From a virus (lineage: Duplodnaviria > Caudoviricetes), in IMG/VR virus record IMGVR_UViG_3300028886_000041: a stretch of DNA of 64,000 nt. One strand, 5' to 3'. A program made the position numbers and the translations under genes. The notes beneath the pieces were generated by a model. It was not told the DNA's origin. It saw only the letters and a list, made by a program, of their open reading frames with translations, and did no database searches. Numbering within the stretch: position 1 is the stretch's first letter; every line of letters begins with the position of its first letter. Positions 1-20,094 of this stretch are shown piece by piece.

Positions 1-54
1 ACCTGTGACCCGTACGTTATCAACATACTGCTCTAACCTACTGAGCTAATCGTC
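1..54 (-). tRNA. tRNA-Ile(GAU), 3' part outside the window
   Basis: Reverse complement GACGATTAGCTCAGTAGGTTAGAGCA GTATG TTGATAA CGTAC: D-arm and anticodon arm with GAT. Confidence 0.85.
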
Positions 55-62
55 TGTAAAAT

Positions 63-136
63 TGGGTGCAGTCGCCGGAATCGCACAATCGGTCCTTCAG
101 CTTATGGGGCTGATATGCACTTTACACCACCCTGCA
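63..136 (-). tRNA. atypical tRNA-Met(CAU) with encoded CCA
   Basis: Anticodon arm TCAGC CCCATAA GCTGA; ends CCCA; two acceptor-stem mismatches, C33 and non-standard T-loop (TGCGATT). Confidence 0.65.
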
Positions 137-152
137 ATATTAGAAAGAACAA

Positions 153-233
153 AGCCAGAAATCAGATTCGAACTGATGAAGCTTTCGCAACGGTTTACAA
201 AACCGTCCTCGTTGGCCGCTTGAGTATTCTGGC
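153..233 (-). tRNA. tRNA-Thr(UGU) with long variable arm
   Basis: Acceptor GCCAGAA/TTCTGGC; anticodon arm ACGGT TTTGTAA ACCGT; V-arm GC-GAAA-GC; T-arm ATCAG TTCGAAT CTGAT. Confidence 0.8.
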
Positions 234-243
234 GTTTATAAAT

Positions 244-335
244 TGGCTGTCCGAGTAGGGTTCGAACCTACCAAACCATTTATTTACGGTCACAGATTAA
301 CAGTCTGCTGCATCACCAATTCTGCTCGTCGGACA
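244..335 (-). tRNA. tRNA-Asn(GUU) with long variable arm
   Basis: Acceptor TGTCCGA/TCGGACA, G73, CCA; anticodon arm GCAGA CTGTTAA TCTGT; ~20-nt V-arm. Confidence 0.88.
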
Positions 336-387
336 TTCATAATTTAAATATAATTCAAAATTGTTTATTTATTGTTTTATAAATTTA

Positions 388-1146
388 TTATAACCCTCGT
401 TTTTTACCATTTTGTGGAATAAAATCTTTTACATATCTTTTACATTGATTTACAAAATTAACTTGTGTATTATTATAATTAGTAATTTCTTTTAATTTCG
501 TCCAACCGTATTTACAATATAATTTATATAAATCAGTATAATATTTTTGTTTTTGTGTAAATTTTTGATGTTTTATTTTTAATTTTTCGGCATTAAACTT
601 ATTTCTAAATTCTAAATCTTCTTTAGTTTTTAATTTTGCTTTATTATGTTTATGATTTATTTTTTTAATAAAAGAATCGAAATTTATAATTCTACCATAA
701 TTCCAACCCGGTTCTAAAGATTCATTTTTATAAATTTTCTTAGATTTTTTAAGTTGTAAATTATATATCCAAACTTTGCCAAATTGAGAATTTCTTTTTC
801 CTGATTGAGATTTAGATTGTATTTTACTAAATTGCATTCTTATCATTTCATACATTCGAGAATTGTAAATCCGCTGCTGATTAGGAGTTTTTGTAAATAT
901 CATCATAACACAAGCTTTAACCATTTTAAAATATGCTTCGTTGTTATCTTCATATATTTTCATTAACAATAAATGACATACATAATGCTCCCGTGCAGTT
1001 AAGTACACAATATTTTCTTTATCATTATTTCCTCCAAGACTTCTTGGAATGATATGATGTTTTTCTGTATAACCTGTTGGCATATTTTGTTTACGAAACG
1101 ATATTATTTTATGGTAATATAAATAATACTTACTGTTAATTTTCAT
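388..1146 (-). CDS. free-standing HNH homing endonuclease
   Basis: EKHHIIPRSLGG...NIVYLTAREHYVCH HNH motif and NUMOD-like basic region; start moved to 1146, 5 nt after TATAAATA. Confidence 0.85.
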   Translation of the reverse strand: MKINSKYYLYYHKIISFRKQNMPTGYTEKHHIIPRSLGGNNDKENIVYLTAREHYVCHLLLMKIYEDNNEAYFKMVKACVMMIFTKTPNQQRIYNSRMYEMIRMQFSKIQSKSQSGKRNSQFGKVWIYNLQLKKSKKIYKNESLEPGWNYGRIINFDSFIKKINHKHNKAKLKTKEDLEFRNKFNAEKLKIKHQKFTQKQKYYTDLYKLYCKYGWTKLKEITNYNNTQVNFVNQCKRYVKDFIPQNGKKRGL

Positions 1147-1151
1147 ATAAG

Positions 1152-1159
1152 TATTTATA
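1152..1159 (-). promoter_or_regulatory. T4-type late promoter TATAAATA
   Basis: Exact T4 late consensus directly before the HNH ATG. Confidence 0.6.
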
Positions 1160-1205
1160 TAATATAACACTTATATGTTAACAGTTATATCAAAGAACTT
1201 TAAAT

Positions 1206-1282
1206 TAGATGCAGTCGCTGGAATTACACCGGACCTTCAACTTATGAGACTAAACTGCTACTACCAACTGAGCTAAACTGGA
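1206..1282 (-). pseudogene. degenerate/chimeric tRNA(CAU)
   Basis: D-arm TAGCTCAGTTGGTAGTAGC and loop CTCATAA, but weak anticodon stem, broken T-arm and CTA end; 3' half resembles the tRNA at 63-136. Confidence 0.55.
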
Positions 1283-1341
1283 ATAAAATTATTAAAGAAC
1301 TAAAAAATATTTATAAATTCAATAGAAAAATGTAAATATAT

Positions 1342-1577
1342 GCCATTACCTGGACTTACCCTTATTACCAGATCTCCAGAGTAACATTCTGGACTCTATT
1401 TTTCTTGTGACAGGTTATTGAGCTAATAATGGACTTCAGTTACTGAGACCCGGTTAACCGTTTGTCAATAAAAGCCATGTGCTTTTATAGGCCTATTTTG
1501 ACGATAATAAGCATAGTCAACTGATGAATGGACCATCTCAATGTGGTGAAGTTGTCATCTTCTTGTTACGGGAACCT
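1342..1577 (-). ncRNA. unidentified structured RNA candidate 1
   Basis: Non-coding, higher GC than flanks, nested long-range complementarities and several hairpins, inside the tRNA array downstream of a boxA-like motif. Confidence 0.5.
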
Positions 1578-1616
1578 TAAATTTAAATAAATTATCAAAG
1601 AACCAGAAAGTAAATA

Positions 1617-1690
1617 TGGGCCCGACAGGACTCGAACCTGTAACTGGGCGATTATGAATCACCTGTTCCACCAAATTAAACTACAGGCCC
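1617..1690 (-). tRNA. tRNA(CAU), probably Ile2
   Basis: GGGCCTG acceptor and A73 (Ile-like); anticodon arm GGTGA TTCATAA TCGCC; GGTTCGAGTCC T-arm. Confidence 0.85.
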
Positions 1691-1702
1691 TAAAAATAAA
1701 CA

Positions 1703-1885
1703 CCATACTATCAATGGTTATTATACACTGATAGTATGGATTTCGCGTACAGACACCTAGTATAATAGTTCTACACAAGCTGATATAGTTGCTTGTGGAT
1801 CGAATTAGTTAGATTCGAATATTATACGCTTATGAAGACCTGTCTGTTAGGTAAGGTTACTAGCCTTTTCTTGCATCAGACGCTT
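1703..1885 (-). ncRNA. unidentified structured RNA candidate 2
   Basis: Five perfect helices (6-11 bp), four forming a nested multibranch fold, between two tRNA genes; no ORF. Confidence 0.5.
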
Positions 1886-1894
1886 ATAAATTTT

Positions 1895-1968
1895 TAGATC
1901 AACTGCGACTTGAACGCAGAACCAACGACTTAAAAGGTCGCTACTCTAACCAATTGAGTTATTGATCC
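1895..1968 (-). tRNA. tRNA-Lys(UUU)
   Basis: Anticodon arm GCGAC CTTTTAA GTCGT; complete cloverleaf; no encoded CCA. Confidence 0.9.
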
Positions 1969-1973
1969 TTAAA

Positions 1974-2047
1974 TGGTCGGGTATATCCGATTTGCACGGC
2001 GACCCATCGCCCCAAACGACGTATGTTCCTATTACACCATATACCCG
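1974..2047 (-). tRNA. tRNA-Pro(UGG)
   Basis: C1-G72 acceptor; arm CGTCG TTTGGGG CGATG; ends ACCA; T-loop TGCAAAT is atypical. Confidence 0.85.
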
Positions 2048-2064
2048 TATTTTATTTTTAAATT

Positions 2065-2149
2065 AGCTAAGTGTAGGATTCGAACCTACAATGTGCATTT
2101 CACAAACAGTTTTGCGGACTGTTGTCTTCAACCATTCGACCAACTTAGC
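2065..2149 (-). tRNA. tRNA-Cys(GCA) with long variable arm and C33
   Basis: Acceptor GCTAAGT/ACTTAGC, U73; arm ACAGT CCGCAAA ACTGT; V-arm TGTG-AAATG-CACA. Confidence 0.85.
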
Positions 2150-2154
2150 ACATT

Positions 2155-2163
2155 TCAAAGAAC
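2155..2163 (-). promoter_or_regulatory. boxA-like motif GTTCTTTGA (also 1595-1603, 1190-1198; variants 1292-1300, 142-150)
   Basis: Repeated only in tRNA-array spacers; resembles rRNA-operon boxA. Confidence 0.55.
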
Positions 2164-2179
2164 TAAAAATTTTAAATTA

Positions 2180-2196
2180 TTTATATATAAGAGTTA
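2180..2196 (-). promoter_or_regulatory. TAACTC-N5-(-10) promoter heading the main tRNA block
   Basis: TAACTC TTATA TATAAA; one of 13 copies. Confidence 0.6.
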
Positions 2197-2199
2197 AAA

Positions 2200-2451
2200 T
2201 TAATCTTTTATATCCAACAATAATTTTTTTACTTCGCGATATTTTTTAATCTTCCGATCTATGGCGCGTTTAAATCCTTCACGAGCTACTGGAAGACCCT
2301 TAAACATATGAATAATATATTCCTCTAAATTCATCCCCAGCATTTCAACCAAAATGTCTGAATTATTAATGAATGCATCGATATCAAGTTTATCAGCTAT
2401 TAACACTGCCGCATCGATTATTTTATTGTTTTCTTTTGTTTCTTTTTTCAT
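2200..2451 (-). CDS. hypothetical protein
   Basis: 83-aa ORF, co-oriented. Confidence 0.65.
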   Translation of the reverse strand: MKKETKENNKIIDAAVLIADKLDIDAFINNSDILVEMLGMNLEEYIIHMFKGLPVAREGFKRAIDRKIKKYREVKKLLLDIKD

Positions 2452-2486
2452 ATATTTTATTTTTAATTAATTGTTTTATTTTAACG

Positions 2487-2578
2487 CGGAGAAAGAGGGT
2501 CTCGAACCCCCACACCCATTTCTGAGTTAACGCATTTCAAGTGCGCCGTCATTAGGCCGAATCTTGACTTATCTCTCC
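2487..2578 (-). tRNA. tRNA-Ser(UGA)
   Basis: GGAGAGA acceptor, G73; arm GCGCA CTTGAAA TGCGT; long V-arm. Confidence 0.9.
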
Positions 2579-2808
2579 GAAGTATTAAAATCTTCATCAA
2601 AATACATATATACATTCTTAAATGCAGTCCATGAACCAAATTCGCGAATGATATCACCGTATTTCAACATATGTGACATACAATTATCTTTTATTACTTC
2701 CCTAAATTCATCTCGATTAAAAGGAAGCGAAAAAATACCATCAAGAAATGCAGTATTGATTAATATTTTAATTTGAGCATCATTTAGATTGTATTTATTT
2801 GTGTTCAT
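2569..2808 (-). CDS. hypothetical protein
   Basis: ATG 6 nt after TAACTC-N5-TATAAT; stop lies inside tRNA-Ser. Confidence 0.7.
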   Translation of the reverse strand: MNTNKYNLNDAQIKILINTAFLDGIFSLPFNRDEFREVIKDNCMSHMLKYGDIIREFGSWTAFKNVYMYFDEDFNTSER

Positions 2809-8435: not shown

Positions 8436-9279
8436 GACAGCCTTTCTTTAATTTTTCAAGAATTTCATCAGCTGTATACCGACTTGCTGGAAATATAACT
8501 TTACCACCATATTTAAGTGTTACACATATTGCATTATGTTCATAGTTTGTATCTGCATATATAGCTACTGCATATTCTGGTCTTATATATGCTGTCATAT
8601 ATGTATTTCCAATCTTGATAAAACTTTCTTTGTTTTTCTCTAAGAAATCAAAAACATCAGCAGCAAATGCATGCTTTGTTTTAATTTCTTGGCCTCCTTT
8701 CAATAGAATTTTGATACAAGGATATTCAAAAACCTCTTCGTATATAGCAACTACAGCTGAAGGTTTTATATAATTATTGTTGATTTTAACAAATTCTTCT
8801 TCGGTGGAATCTGGTGAATATTTCACAGCTTTCTGAATTTGTTCTTCCGACAATTCAGCTCCTTCAATATCTTTCAATTCAGAAACATATTTGGTTTTAT
8901 TATTAGGTTTATAAATTTTATATGCAAATTCTAGCGCTCTTTCTTCTCTAAGCTCTTTATCTAAACGCTCAAAAATTTCTTTAGCTTCTTGTACTAACTC
9001 TTGTGCAAATTTTTGCGACGGCTGTGCCCAAACTGTTTCTACAAAGCTAATATTATATATACTATCCTTATAAGAAAATACCATTTTATAACAATTATTT
9101 ACTAGATGCTTAATGCCGAAATATGCATCTCCATTAAAATCGAAATGTTTGTAAGAATAGTCTTTTATATATGTACTTGCGGCATAAGCTTCTATTTCTT
9201 TCAAACAATCCAAAAAACCATCTATAGTGGCAAATTTAGATAATATCTTTTTTAAGTCTGTTTCGTTTTGTTTTGTCAT
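8428..9279 (-). CDS. modular hypothetical protein
   Basis: N-half paralogous to 16439-16945; C-half has two copies of the 8196-8435 domain. Confidence 0.8.
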   Translation of the reverse strand: MTKQNETDLKKILSKFATIDGFLDCLKEIEAYAASTYIKDYSYKHFDFNGDAYFGIKHLVNNCYKMVFSYKDSIYNISFVETVWAQPSQKFAQELVQEAKEIFERLDKELREERALEFAYKIYKPNNKTKYVSELKDIEGAELSEEQIQKAVKYSPDSTEEEFVKINNNYIKPSAVVAIYEEVFEYPCIKILLKGGQEIKTKHAFAADVFDFLEKNKESFIKIGNTYMTAYIRPEYAVAIYADTNYEHNAICVTLKYGGKVIFPASRYTADEILEKLKKGCHE

Positions 9280-9316
9280 TTGTAAATTATTTTTTGATTT
9301 GATATAAGAGAGTTAT

Positions 9317-17737: not shown

Positions 17738-19613
17738 TGGTGCATGACCGGCTCCGCGCTATTTCACGCGCTCGAGCAACCGAGAAACATCATGATTACC
17801 GTCACCGAAAAGATACGCCCAGTGTGTTATTCCTCTGAGCCCTCGTCGGGTTCGTCTATCGCCTTGCCGTTGTATCGGTCAGCGATAGCCTGAACGTTGG
17901 ATATGCCGAGACGCGCGACGTCGTCCGCGTTCAGGCGTATGACGCGCCCTGGTGCGACAAGTCTGCCGCCGTCTGTGTAGATGTCACCGCAAACTTCGAT
18001 GACCTCGATTTGCAGGTTTTCGTTATCGCCGATTTTTATGCGTGATTGATTTTTCATTTTACATTATGAGTTCGTCGTATGTTATCGCCGCTCGAAGATT
18101 GACGATTCCAGTTCCGGCGGCGTTGCGGAAAATGGAAATTGGAATGTTGTAATCGCCGCCGCCCCAGCAGTTGACAGACTGCCACGTGCGCGCGGCGGAG
18201 AATGTTACCGAGGAGGTGTATCCGCTCGCCGATACGCGGAGAGTTAGCGCTTTGTCGCTCCAAAGTTTGAGCGTGCAGACGCACTTGCCTGCCGCAGCCA
18301 CGACTGTCGAGCCGCCTATTCTGGCGCCCGTATTCTTGGACAAATCGAGCGAGAAATTATCGTAACAAGCCGACGCGGGATTTCGGTTTTTGTCAGCGCT
18401 GACGCCGAGCCCGACGGGAACATATCCCTCGTGAAAATTAAGGTGGTTTCCGTTTCCGGACAGGTCATGTATTTGAGGCCCTGAAAGGGCGTCGTCGGCT
18501 TCGCAGAGGACGTCATCGGCGGTCGTTATCGAAAATCCTGCGACGGATATGGCGTAGTCGCCGTATGTGGGTGAGTTTGTCGGTGAGACGAACAGCGCGG
18601 GAATGTAAAGGCCGTCCTCAATGCTGTCAGTTATGACGGCGTCGTATTCGTGCCACGAGGTGTCGGGTGCGGTCGGCGCGTTGATTTTGACGAGTTGCTG
18701 CTCGGAGATTTCGGGCCCCCATATATAGACGCCGAAGAAGACACTGTCGGTCGCGCTCGTGAGCTTATTCCACTTATACTTAAACTTTATGCGGTATTTG
18801 CGCGTCGATGTGTCCGTCTGAAAATGCCCGTAAGAGTTGCTGAGCGCAGCTTGTTCGTAGATGTTGCCGCTGCCGTTCATCGCGAGGTCTATGGCGTAGC
18901 TCTCGCCGTCGGGCAGGTCTGACGCTCTGTTTTTAAGATAAGACACAAGCGGGCCAGCTACCCAGTCGCCATTTTTAACGGACGAGTATTCCTCCGGCGG
19001 CGTGGTGATGTTCCACGCGGACGTGGACGCGCCCATTGTCGTGTCGGTCGAATATCCATATCGACTGCGCAGCGCACGCGGAACGGATTTCCCCGCGCGG
19101 TAGTCGGCGAACGTGTAAGGCGCGTTCTCGTCCAGAATATCGAAGTCAAAAACCGCAAGCCGCGAAAAGCTGCTGTCGCCATTCGCATAAGTGGAGTTGA
19201 AGCCGAACTCAGTGACGGACGTGGAGAAAGACAGGCTCGTAGCCGCGAGAGACGAATCGTTCGCGGCGATTTTTATTTTTCCGTCGGACGTCCAGACGAA
19301 CGCGACGCAGTATATCGGCGCGGCGGGAATATTGTTGAGCGTGACAGTGTCGAGCCGTTGGTCGTCCATAATTGTGAAAAACGCCGTCGCGGACGACGTG
19401 TGTCCGCCGAATGGGCAGCCGAACATTGTAAACAGCTCCGACTCGTTCATGCTGTCGGTCGTGAATACAAACGAACAAGTTGGCTGAATGTTATAATTTG
19501 CCCGATTGCAGGAGACCTTTTCGGCGCCAGCTGGCGCGTAAAATTTGCCGATGCGCTCTCGCATTAAAAATTCGCTCGAGGACTGAGCCACCTCGAGAAT
19601 TTCGTCGGAAATG
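17738..19613. other. GC-rich horizontally acquired cassette
   Basis: Sampled 60-nt lines inside have 28-40 G+C against 9 in a flanking line; abrupt edges. Confidence 0.9.
17827..18057 (-). CDS. small protein accompanying the fibre C-terminal domain
   Basis: 76 aa, starts 1 nt after the upstream stop, GC-rich codons. Confidence 0.7.
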   Translation of the reverse strand: MKNQSRIKIGDNENLQIEVIEVCGDIYTDGGRLVAPGRVIRLNADDVARLGISNVQAIADRYNGKAIDEPDEGSEE

Positions 19614-20068
19614 TCACCACTTAAAGTAGCACCATTGATAGTTGGTTTGTTTTCTAAATCGTTATAACTAACACTTAAATCAACAGTGGAAAGATCACCA
19701 CTTAAAGTAACACCATTGATAGTTGGTTTGTTTTCTAAATCGTTATAATCTGATGTTCCACCATCATTTAATAAATATACTAATTTAGCATATCTCGGAT
19801 ATAATCCTTCTTTTCCAGATAAGGGTGGTATAACAGATGAATCTATTTCAACTAACGCACAATCTTCAGCATGTGCTGGATTATACGGATTTTCCGGGTG
19901 AATATCGTTATTATTGCCGTTATTTACGTTATAAACAAATGTAGCATATCTTGGATATACCCCTTCAAGCCCTGTTAGAGGAGAAACAACCGATTGATCT
20001 ACCTCTGTTAAAGTTAAATCTTCAGCATGTGCTGGATTGTAAGGATTTTCTGGATTAATAGTTGACAT
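18059..20068 (-). CDS. chimeric tail-fibre/receptor-binding-like protein
   Basis: AT-rich repeated N-terminus (ENPYNPAHAED x2; YNDLENKPTING.TLSGD x2) fused to a GC-rich beta-rich C-terminus with LamG-associated DLSGNGNH motif; start 8 nt after TAAATA. Confidence 0.7.
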   Translation of the reverse strand: MSTINPENPYNPAHAEDLTLTEVDQSVVSPLTGLEGVYPRYATFVYNVNNGNNNDIHPENPYNPAHAEDCALVEIDSSVIPPLSGKEGLYPRYAKLVYLLNDGGTSDYNDLENKPTINGVTLSGDLSTVDLSVSYNDLENKPTINGATLSGDISDEILEVAQSSSEFLMRERIGKFYAPAGAEKVSCNRANYNIQPTCSFVFTTDSMNESELFTMFGCPFGGHTSSATAFFTIMDDQRLDTVTLNNIPAAPIYCVAFVWTSDGKIKIAANDSSLAATSLSFSTSVTEFGFNSTYANGDSSFSRLAVFDFDILDENAPYTFADYRAGKSVPRALRSRYGYSTDTTMGASTSAWNITTPPEEYSSVKNGDWVAGPLVSYLKNRASDLPDGESYAIDLAMNGSGNIYEQAALSNSYGHFQTDTSTRKYRIKFKYKWNKLTSATDSVFFGVYIWGPEISEQQLVKINAPTAPDTSWHEYDAVITDSIEDGLYIPALFVSPTNSPTYGDYAISVAGFSITTADDVLCEADDALSGPQIHDLSGNGNHLNFHEGYVPVGLGVSADKNRNPASACYDNFSLDLSKNTGARIGGSTVVAAAGKCVCTLKLWSDKALTLRVSASGYTSSVTFSAARTWQSVNCWGGGDYNIPISIFRNAAGTGIVNLRAAITYDELIM
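19614..19748. repeat. 54-bp direct repeat (19614-19667 and 19695-19748, one mismatch)
   Basis: TCACCACTTAAAGTA[G/A]CACCATTGATAGTTGGTTTGTTTTCTAAATCGTTATAA twice, 81-nt period. Confidence 0.95.
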
Positions 20069-20094
20069 TATACAAATATTTATCAAAAATTAAT

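Follow-up and report, generated by a model that had tools for sequence, protein, structure and literature searches.

The DNA analysed (the window) is a 64,000 nt stretch of a 105,954 bp IMG/VR virus record, which has an estimated completeness of 48% and a GC content of about 27%. Genes for DnaK, a macro domain protein, RtcB, an NAD-dependent ligase and myovirus baseplate proteins are present in the record. A tRNA array occupies window positions 1–2600 and about 1.3 kb before the window start, and is wholly on the minus strand. The genes called there by ARAGORN and Rfam are tRNA-Gln, Glu, Met, Ala, Ile, Thr, Asn, Met, Lys, Pro-like and Cys, as well as a long-arm tRNA and a tmRNA. Like all tRNA genes of the array and the tmRNA, the neighbouring phage genes are without exception encoded on the minus strand; plus-strand genes occur nearby only in an IS607 insertion, about 2 kb from the element described here.

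The phage-encoded tmRNA is located within the array before the window start, on the minus strand (locus L002, 6208–6536), and scores 54.9 bits in Rfam. Between tRNA-Ala and tRNA-Ile, 26 to 110 bases before the window start, there are about 85 nt (L002 7049–7133) with 81–83% identity to sequences of several related arrays and with a GUA anticodon arm; this is probably a long-arm tRNA-Tyr overlooked by both ARAGORN and Rfam. RtcB is encoded near the array in the present phage (window 11240–12448) and in some relatives. In other relatives a fused kinase-phosphatase-T4 Rnl1-type ligase (L114 5884–8067, L115 5600–7777) lies at nearly the same place, a few kb upstream of the array, as though this neighbourhood could be equipped with either of two tRNA-repair kits. 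Window 18001–20000 is a 2 kb block of 50% GC, against 27% for the genome. It coincides with a 675 aa ORF (18059–20086, minus strand) that has no PHROG family match, and may be foreign DNA.

Within the array, between a tRNA-Met and a hybrid tRNA(CAU) gene, is an ORF-free island that is here referred to as the element (Table 1). Its borders are sharp, the GC fraction being 0.40 in the element and 0.10 and 0.15 in the flanking spacers. The tRNA genes of the array have a comparable GC fraction of 0.42–0.51. High GC alone does not prove function, however, because a similar GC fraction (0.44) is found in the hybrid tRNA(CAU), which is unfolded, with z-scores of about 0 on both strands. An earlier reading from the sequence alone (the sequence-only reading) held that there is no ORF here, and none of at least 30 aa is found inside the element. 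The sole listed ORF that touches it (1555–1674, minus strand) is spurious and extends into tRNA-Met. A second copy or repeat of the element was not found within the phage record. The neighbouring tRNA genes and the upstream boxA-like motif suggest that the element is read from the minus strand.

Table 1. Features of the element and of its surroundings (window coordinates).
Feature	Position	Strand	Remarks
Element	1342–1577	minus (from context)	236 nt ORF-free island; 40% GC; single-copy in the 106 kb record
tRNA-Met	1690→1617	minus	Flanks the element on the upstream side
boxA-like motif GTTCTTTGA	1595–1603 (1603→1595)	minus	Precedes the element
GUAACA	1564–1569	minus	5' tail; complements the hairpin loop UGUUAC (1386–1381); contains the Asn codon AAC
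A>G polymorphism	1573		Sole one in the element; 5' tail, outside all proposed helices; in two near-identical contigs from other samples
Long-range helix, 5' strand CUUAUUAUC	1503–1511	minus	Partner is 1361–1369
8 bp hairpin AUAAAAGC/GCUUUUAU	1468–1488	either	5 nt loop; pair probability 0.89 on the plus strand
RNA-V-like stretch	1417–1458	minus	About 38–45 nt resembling the invariant RNA-V 3' core; sole outside similarity
13 bp helix	1402–1414 with 1562–1574	plus only	Four G-U pairs; pair probability 0.97
Hairpin UCCAGA/UCUGGA	1375–1393	minus	7 nt loop AUGUUAC; most robust; pair probability 0.96
Long-range helix, 3' strand GGUAAUAAG	1361–1369	minus	Pairs with 1503–1511; pair probability 0.99
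TATAAATA, T4-late-promoter-like	1308–1315	minus	With the next boxA-like motif (1292–1300) marks the start of the following module
Hybrid tRNA(CAU)	1280→1209	minus	Flanks the element on the downstream side
HNH endonuclease gene	1170→388	minus	After the hybrid tRNA(CAU)
tRNA-Asn	244–335		The phage's own gene

The boxA-like motif 5' of the element is followed by TA at 1594–1593, which completes GTTCTTTGATA, then by a 16 nt spacer of A and T only (1592–1577) and then by the GC-rich body. There are seven copies of GTTCTTTGA on the minus strand of the 106 kb record, and all except one are within the tRNA array, where they precede tRNA-Cys, the element, both hybrid tRNA(CAU) genes, the HNH gene and the tmRNA block. 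The sequence-only reading, which had likened the element to a tRNA gene in having a boxA-like motif before it, is upheld on this point by the array-specific distribution. The presence of the motif upstream of the element therefore points to the minus strand. Since TATAAATA and the boxA-like motif after it start the next module, the element would either end a transcription unit or adjoin a restart, on the upstream side of it.

In general boxA acts just downstream of promoters. In the related locus L119 there are four tandem promoter-like repeats (8766–9300), three of which are followed by a short hairpin and GTTCTTTGA, while the fourth has TTTTGAAAA in place of GTTCTTTGA. Between these repeats and the HNH cassette there are about 600 nt of non-coding sequence that is richer in GC. 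Their layout is consistent with a GTTCTTTGA motif that acts, like boxA, just past promoters.

The array is clearly a hot spot for recombination. The HNH cassette, which comprises the gene and its leader (window 395–1199), has 76–80% identical counterparts in other phages (L119, L121, L127, L129). It is always followed by tRNA-Asn, with tRNA-Met(CAU) soon after in three of four contexts, and in the present phage a duplicated tRNA(CAU) 3' half stands on either side of it. Window 78–148, which neither ARAGORN nor Rfam calls, is 80% identical to the tRNA-Met associated with HNH cassettes. The hybrid tRNA(CAU) at 1209–1280 has no Rfam call and is likely to be a pseudogene left by insertion of the cassette. 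With this unfolded, GC-rich gene next to the element, it is evident that such relics exist in the array. The element was considered as part of the HNH homing cassette and rejected, as the similarity in five other phage contexts covers only 395–1199. The similarity stops at the boxA-like motif, and the element is therefore outside the mobile unit.

On the other side of tRNA-Met there is a neighbouring RNA candidate (1703–1885, minus strand). It has a 73% identical homologue, window 1737–1892 corresponding to L103 1636–1791, and alignment of window 1695–1895 with L103 1595–1845 contains 15 compensatory pairs when read on the minus strand. Its fold z-scores are −3.5 (plus strand) and −4.1 (minus strand). 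This is a conserved structured RNA without an Rfam family, and the case for it is much stronger than that for the element. The compensatory pairs also indicate that genuine structured RNAs exist in this array and that the minus strand is the one that is read. A composite of the element and this RNA across tRNA-Met, in the style of GOLLD, was rejected, the pairing between the two domains being no better than in shuffles.

None of the 4227 models of Rfam 15 overlaps 1342–1577 at the gathering score, and with lax filters (E≤10, 3 kb) there is likewise no match that overlaps the element. The models covered include tRNA, tmRNA, 6S, RNase P, Y RNA, group I and II introns, ribozymes, GOLLD and ROOL. 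Novelty with respect to Rfam, which the sequence-only reading had proposed to check with cmscan, is thus not refuted at E≤10. An intron-bearing or degenerate tRNA was rejected as well, since ARAGORN, with introns allowed and at thresholds of 80% and 70%, gives no credible call inside the element.

Searches for homologues were extended to several collections. In 50,697 GenBank phage records, distant-mode blastn of 1150–1750 matched only tRNA-Met genes. There was no homologue in 80 DnaK-anchored IMG/VR loci searched with blastn and nhmmer, which gave short chance matches at most, and none in 42 whole IMG/VR records. Scans of IMG/VR for exact patterns returned nothing but GC-rich chance matches, and a 19-mer of the flanking tRNA-Met had zero matches there. 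The four matches in JGI metagenomes are all due to chance, and two 20–22-mers had zero matches in 185,579 prokaryote genomes. The neighbouring 283 aa protein has no relatives in IMG/VR, and the 83 aa ORF of the array has only identical copies among 5.8 billion proteins. Contigs carrying this ORF (samples SRR9008756, JGI 3300026539, SRR11060117 and ERZ27256887) match the window at 99.9–100% identity and differ within the element at a single SNP, and the element is known only from such near-identical copies.

Homologues of DnaK, at 82% and about 70% identity, are on ENA/Logan contigs of about 190–265 kb that have many genes in common with the present phage. The arrays of relatives were reached through a 79 aa array ORF (L103–L118) and through HNH homologues (L119–L121, L127–L130), and were read in windows of about 20 kb around the anchor proteins. 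No alignable copy of the element is present in the arrays among L103–L130, and it is absent from the array regions read in the nearest relatives reached, in which DnaK is 82% identical. Without a homologue at any distance, there is no sign of purifying selection or of covariation.

Some of these relatives, which are lake phages, contain a different cassette RNA in their tRNA arrays, for which the label RNA-V was coined here. RNA-V is 320 nt in length (L107 10516–10826; also L105, L106, L108, L110, L111 and L122), is clamped by a 21 bp helix and has 13 compensatory pairs. It is variable between strains and is cleanly missing from L109 and L113–L118. Its insertion point is directly after a resident GTTCTTTGA, with a 16 nt A/T spacer, so that the layout is that of the element: GTTCTTTGATA, 16 A/T positions and then the RNA. 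Within the element, 1417–1458 scores 34 against RNA-V by Smith-Waterman alignment, compared to 21±2.5 for shuffles, and pairwise blastn gives an E-value of 2.6e-4. With an RNA-V nhmmer profile the element is the top match genome-wide (E 0.31, or 0.031 within the array). A covariance model of the RNA-V 3' domain gives the element 4.1 bits (E 2.6, rank 43) and does not single it out. A scan of IMG/VR for the core motif returned 36 matches. Of these, 35 are chance matches, 34 having no tRNA in the locus and one having its nearest tRNA about 4 kb away; the one remaining is in L122, in an array of the RNA-V clade. Common descent of 1417–1458 and the RNA-V core is possible on the basis of this local alignment.

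The sequence-only reading had described an elaborate fold for the element. The long-range pairs that it quoted, TGACA (1408–1412) with TGTCA (1553–1557) and ATTGAG (1417–1422) with CTCAAT (1537–1542), are present at those positions. Likewise present are the hairpin of TCCAGA (1375–1380) and TCTGGA (1388–1393), its loop GTAACA (1381–1386) and the complementary TGTTAC (1564–1569). The nested multibranch fold built from them is not supported by the folding energies. The seven helices alone come to −15 to −17 kcal/mol, and the best folds that contain them reach −32.8 kcal/mol on the plus strand and −30.6 kcal/mol on the minus strand. The unconstrained folds are at −60.8 and −52.7 kcal/mol, respectively, so that enforcing the helices costs 22–28 kcal/mol. 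Two of the proposed hairpins are sterically marginal, TCAGT/ACTGA having a 1 nt loop and CGGTTAACCG having 3 bp and a 4 nt loop. Against dinucleotide shuffles the element has a z-score of −2.2 when folded as the plus strand; as the minus strand it scores only −0.75, and its fold is equalled by 47 of 200 shuffles. As for the pseudoknot, the GUAACA/UGUUAC complement exists as quoted, but a 6 nt complement to the hairpin loop elsewhere in the sequence arises in 16% of shuffles. The ornate multibranch and pseudoknot fold should not be taken forward as described. Of the claim of a novel phage ncRNA, the non-coding nature, the gene-like placement and the lack of an Rfam family stand, but the elaborate fold is not supported.

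Robust helices are predicted on both strands. On the minus strand these are the 1375–1393 hairpin, the 8 bp AUAAAAGC hairpin and a 9 bp helix between 1361–1369 and 1503–1511. The 9 bp helix, which was absent from the earlier list, is specific to the minus strand, as its one G-U pair would be a C-A mismatch on the plus strand. The better z-score of the plus strand is due to the 13 bp helix between 1402–1414 and 1562–1574, which closes a rod-like fold. The only pairs that join the ends of the element are this plus-strand helix, the 6 nt GUAACA/UGUUAC complement and a 5 bp CCAUU/AAUGG end helix in the minus-strand minimum free energy fold; none of the folds has a terminal clamp comparable to the 21 bp of RNA-V. 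With robust helices on both strands, thermodynamics leaves the strand unsettled, and it is the context that favours the minus strand.

The most robust of the hairpins is similar to the anticodon arm of the phage tRNA-Asn. Read on the minus strand, 1375–1393 contains CCAGA-AUGUUAC-UCUGG, and the corresponding arm of tRNA-Asn is GCAGA-CUGUUAA-UCUGU. The two are identical at 13 of 17 positions, with a CAGA/UCUG stem and a 7 nt xUGUUAx loop in common, and the closing pair is altered on both sides. U33, the GUU anticodon and A37 are retained. Genome-wide, this is the only match to the Asn arm of at least 13 of 17 outside the true tRNAs in which all five stem pairs are kept, although the significance of the likeness is estimated to be modest, at roughly p 0.01–0.05, and it was picked post hoc. 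Unlike tRNA-Asn, the element has no D arm, T arm or acceptor stem, and there is no tRNA call by ARAGORN (relaxed) or Rfam. The hairpin may be either a mimic or a relic.

The favoured interpretation, to which a probability of about 45% is given, is that the element is a lineage-specific non-coding cassette of the minus-strand tRNA operon. An RNA gene is favoured because the neighbour at 1703–1885 has a homologue with 15 compensatory pairs, because relatives hold other boxA-led RNA cassettes in the same array, and because the 3' hairpin copies the anticodon stem-loop of tRNA-Asn at 13 of 17 positions. Such a cassette would be co-transcribed with tRNA-Cys, Pro and Lys, the 1703–1885 RNA and tRNA-Met, and a boxA-like site upstream would probably serve in antitermination. 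It would be freed by tRNA-trimming enzymes, through 3' processing of tRNA-Met on the upstream side and cuts of the RNase P or RNase E type downstream, and may persist as a small stable RNA of about 240 nt, like T4 RNAC and RNAD. Its stable parts would be local, being the Asn anticodon-arm look-alike, the 8 bp hairpin and the 9 bp long-range helix, with no multibranch pseudoknot.

A narrower version of the lineage-specific cassette explanation is that the element is a diverged, shortened member of the RNA-V family, sharing a functional 3' core (GUUAACC...UAACUGAAGU) and the boxA-led layout. The strand, the array context and the 16 nt A/T spacer after GTTCTTTGATA are the same, there is the local similarity of about 38–45 nt with the top nhmmer match genome-wide, and by eye UUGAG/CUCAA and AGU/ACU long-range pairs flank the core in both RNAs. 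However, the genome-wide E-value of 0.31 is weak, the covariance model places the element at rank 43 with 4.1 bits, and global alignment fails. RNA-V is 320 nt with its 21 bp clamp and 13 compensatory pairs, whereas the element is 236 nt, has no such terminal helix and aligns only locally, over about 38 nt. The core motif also defines no wider family, 35 of its 36 IMG/VR matches being due to chance. Membership of the RNA-V family is therefore considered rather unlikely, although it is consistent with the module layout. A further idea is a decoy or sensor built around the U33-G34-U35-U36-A37 mimic of the tRNA-Asn anticodon arm. Anticodon nucleases of the colicin E5 type and the queuine-inserting transglycosylase recognise G34-U35 anticodon loops, and the element might soak up such a host enzyme, while the AAC-bearing GUAACA of the 5' tail could mask or unmask the loop. 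This is a very improbable role for the element, suggested by the loop sequence.

The lineage-specific cassette has two further competitors, one of which is that the element is a non-functional relic. It would then be debris of recombination and homing endonuclease activity, made of old tRNA or RNA gene fragments in which decay towards AT is incomplete, passively transcribed and discarded. This is the main rival, a plausible though tentative account that is rated somewhat below the cassette. The array is visibly mosaic, as illustrated by the recurrence of the HNH cassette and the duplicated tRNA(CAU) 3' half, and the adjoining hybrid tRNA is GC-rich yet unfolded. The element is an orphan in all homologue searches, on the transcribed strand it folds no better than expected by chance, and the RNA cassettes of relatives are gained and lost between strains. 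The Asn-like hairpin could be what is left of a tRNA-Asn gene that was replaced, but the rest of the element is not tRNA-like (ARAGORN at 70%, Rfam tRNA model at E≤10). Nor do the sharp borders with spacers of 10–15% GC and the retention of the boxA-plus-spacer layout favour a relic.

The other competitor is that the plus strand is functional, giving an antisense RNA that is either about 75 nt, ending at the 1375–1393 hairpin and T-run, or a rod of about 175 nt closed by 1402–1414 and 1562–1574. The fold is sharper and better on this strand (z-score −2.2), with helices of p>0.95 that rely on G-U pairs, but the minus strand has a G-U-dependent 9 bp helix of its own. On the plus strand, 1375–1403 is a hairpin followed by a T-run with a terminator-like score; such terminator-like sites number two per 3 kb, however, which is the level of the shuffles (1.1±1.0). 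There is also TATAAATT at 1311–1318 of the plus strand, one mismatch from the late-promoter octamer. Against this, all of the tRNA genes and neighbouring phage genes are on the minus strand, the IS607 genes being the only exception nearby, and no target or partner for a plus-strand RNA is evident. A functional plus strand is accordingly judged improbable.

The tRNA region of bacteriophage T4 also gives rise to two small RNAs of unknown role (PMC3014915). The element has the same type of placement as these, being inside a tRNA cluster, on the strand of the tRNA genes as judged from context, and without an ORF. T4 RNAC and RNAD (species 1 and 2 RNAs) are among the phage tRNA genes and are co-transcribed with them, and the biogenesis of the element is presumed to be alike. 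Both T4 RNAs are about 120–140 nt in length, and the element is longer and has no sequence similarity to them (distant blastn, GenBank phages). ROOL and GOLLD, structured RNAs likewise of unknown function, have been described near phage tRNA islands, and one GOLLD was first seen just downstream of tRNA-Met (PMC12286853). The element is a further case of phage sequence by a tRNA array, and like GOLLD it is located just downstream of tRNA-Met. It is 236 nt, however, compared to about 580–800 nt or more for ROOL and GOLLD, matches neither Rfam model at E≤10, and has no sign of a complex conserved fold. If it is real, the element is new and so far unique among the RNAs embedded in phage tRNA clusters.

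The tRNA arrays of phages have come to be viewed as counter-defence loci, and several carry RNAs such as T4 RNAC and RNAD, ROOL and GOLLD. Taken by itself, the element is an orphan and only weakly folded, and its present value is mainly as a marker to be sought in strand-specific RNA data. The stronger signal in this region is that of the boxA-led cassettes as a set, and of the 1703–1885 RNA in particular. Were the decoy interpretation true, the element would belong to an anti-defence kit aimed at tRNA, beside the RtcB ligase and the odd tRNAs, and with RNA-V might form a family of swappable boxA-led cassettes in giant phages of lakes. Should the element prove to be a stable RNA, it would add to the evidence from the same array, provided by the conserved 1703–1885 RNA and by the cassette RNA of the relatives, for interchangeable boxA-led RNA cassettes in AT-rich giant phages of lakes. 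The boxA-led cassette system would be a tractable place in which to ask what such RNAs do.
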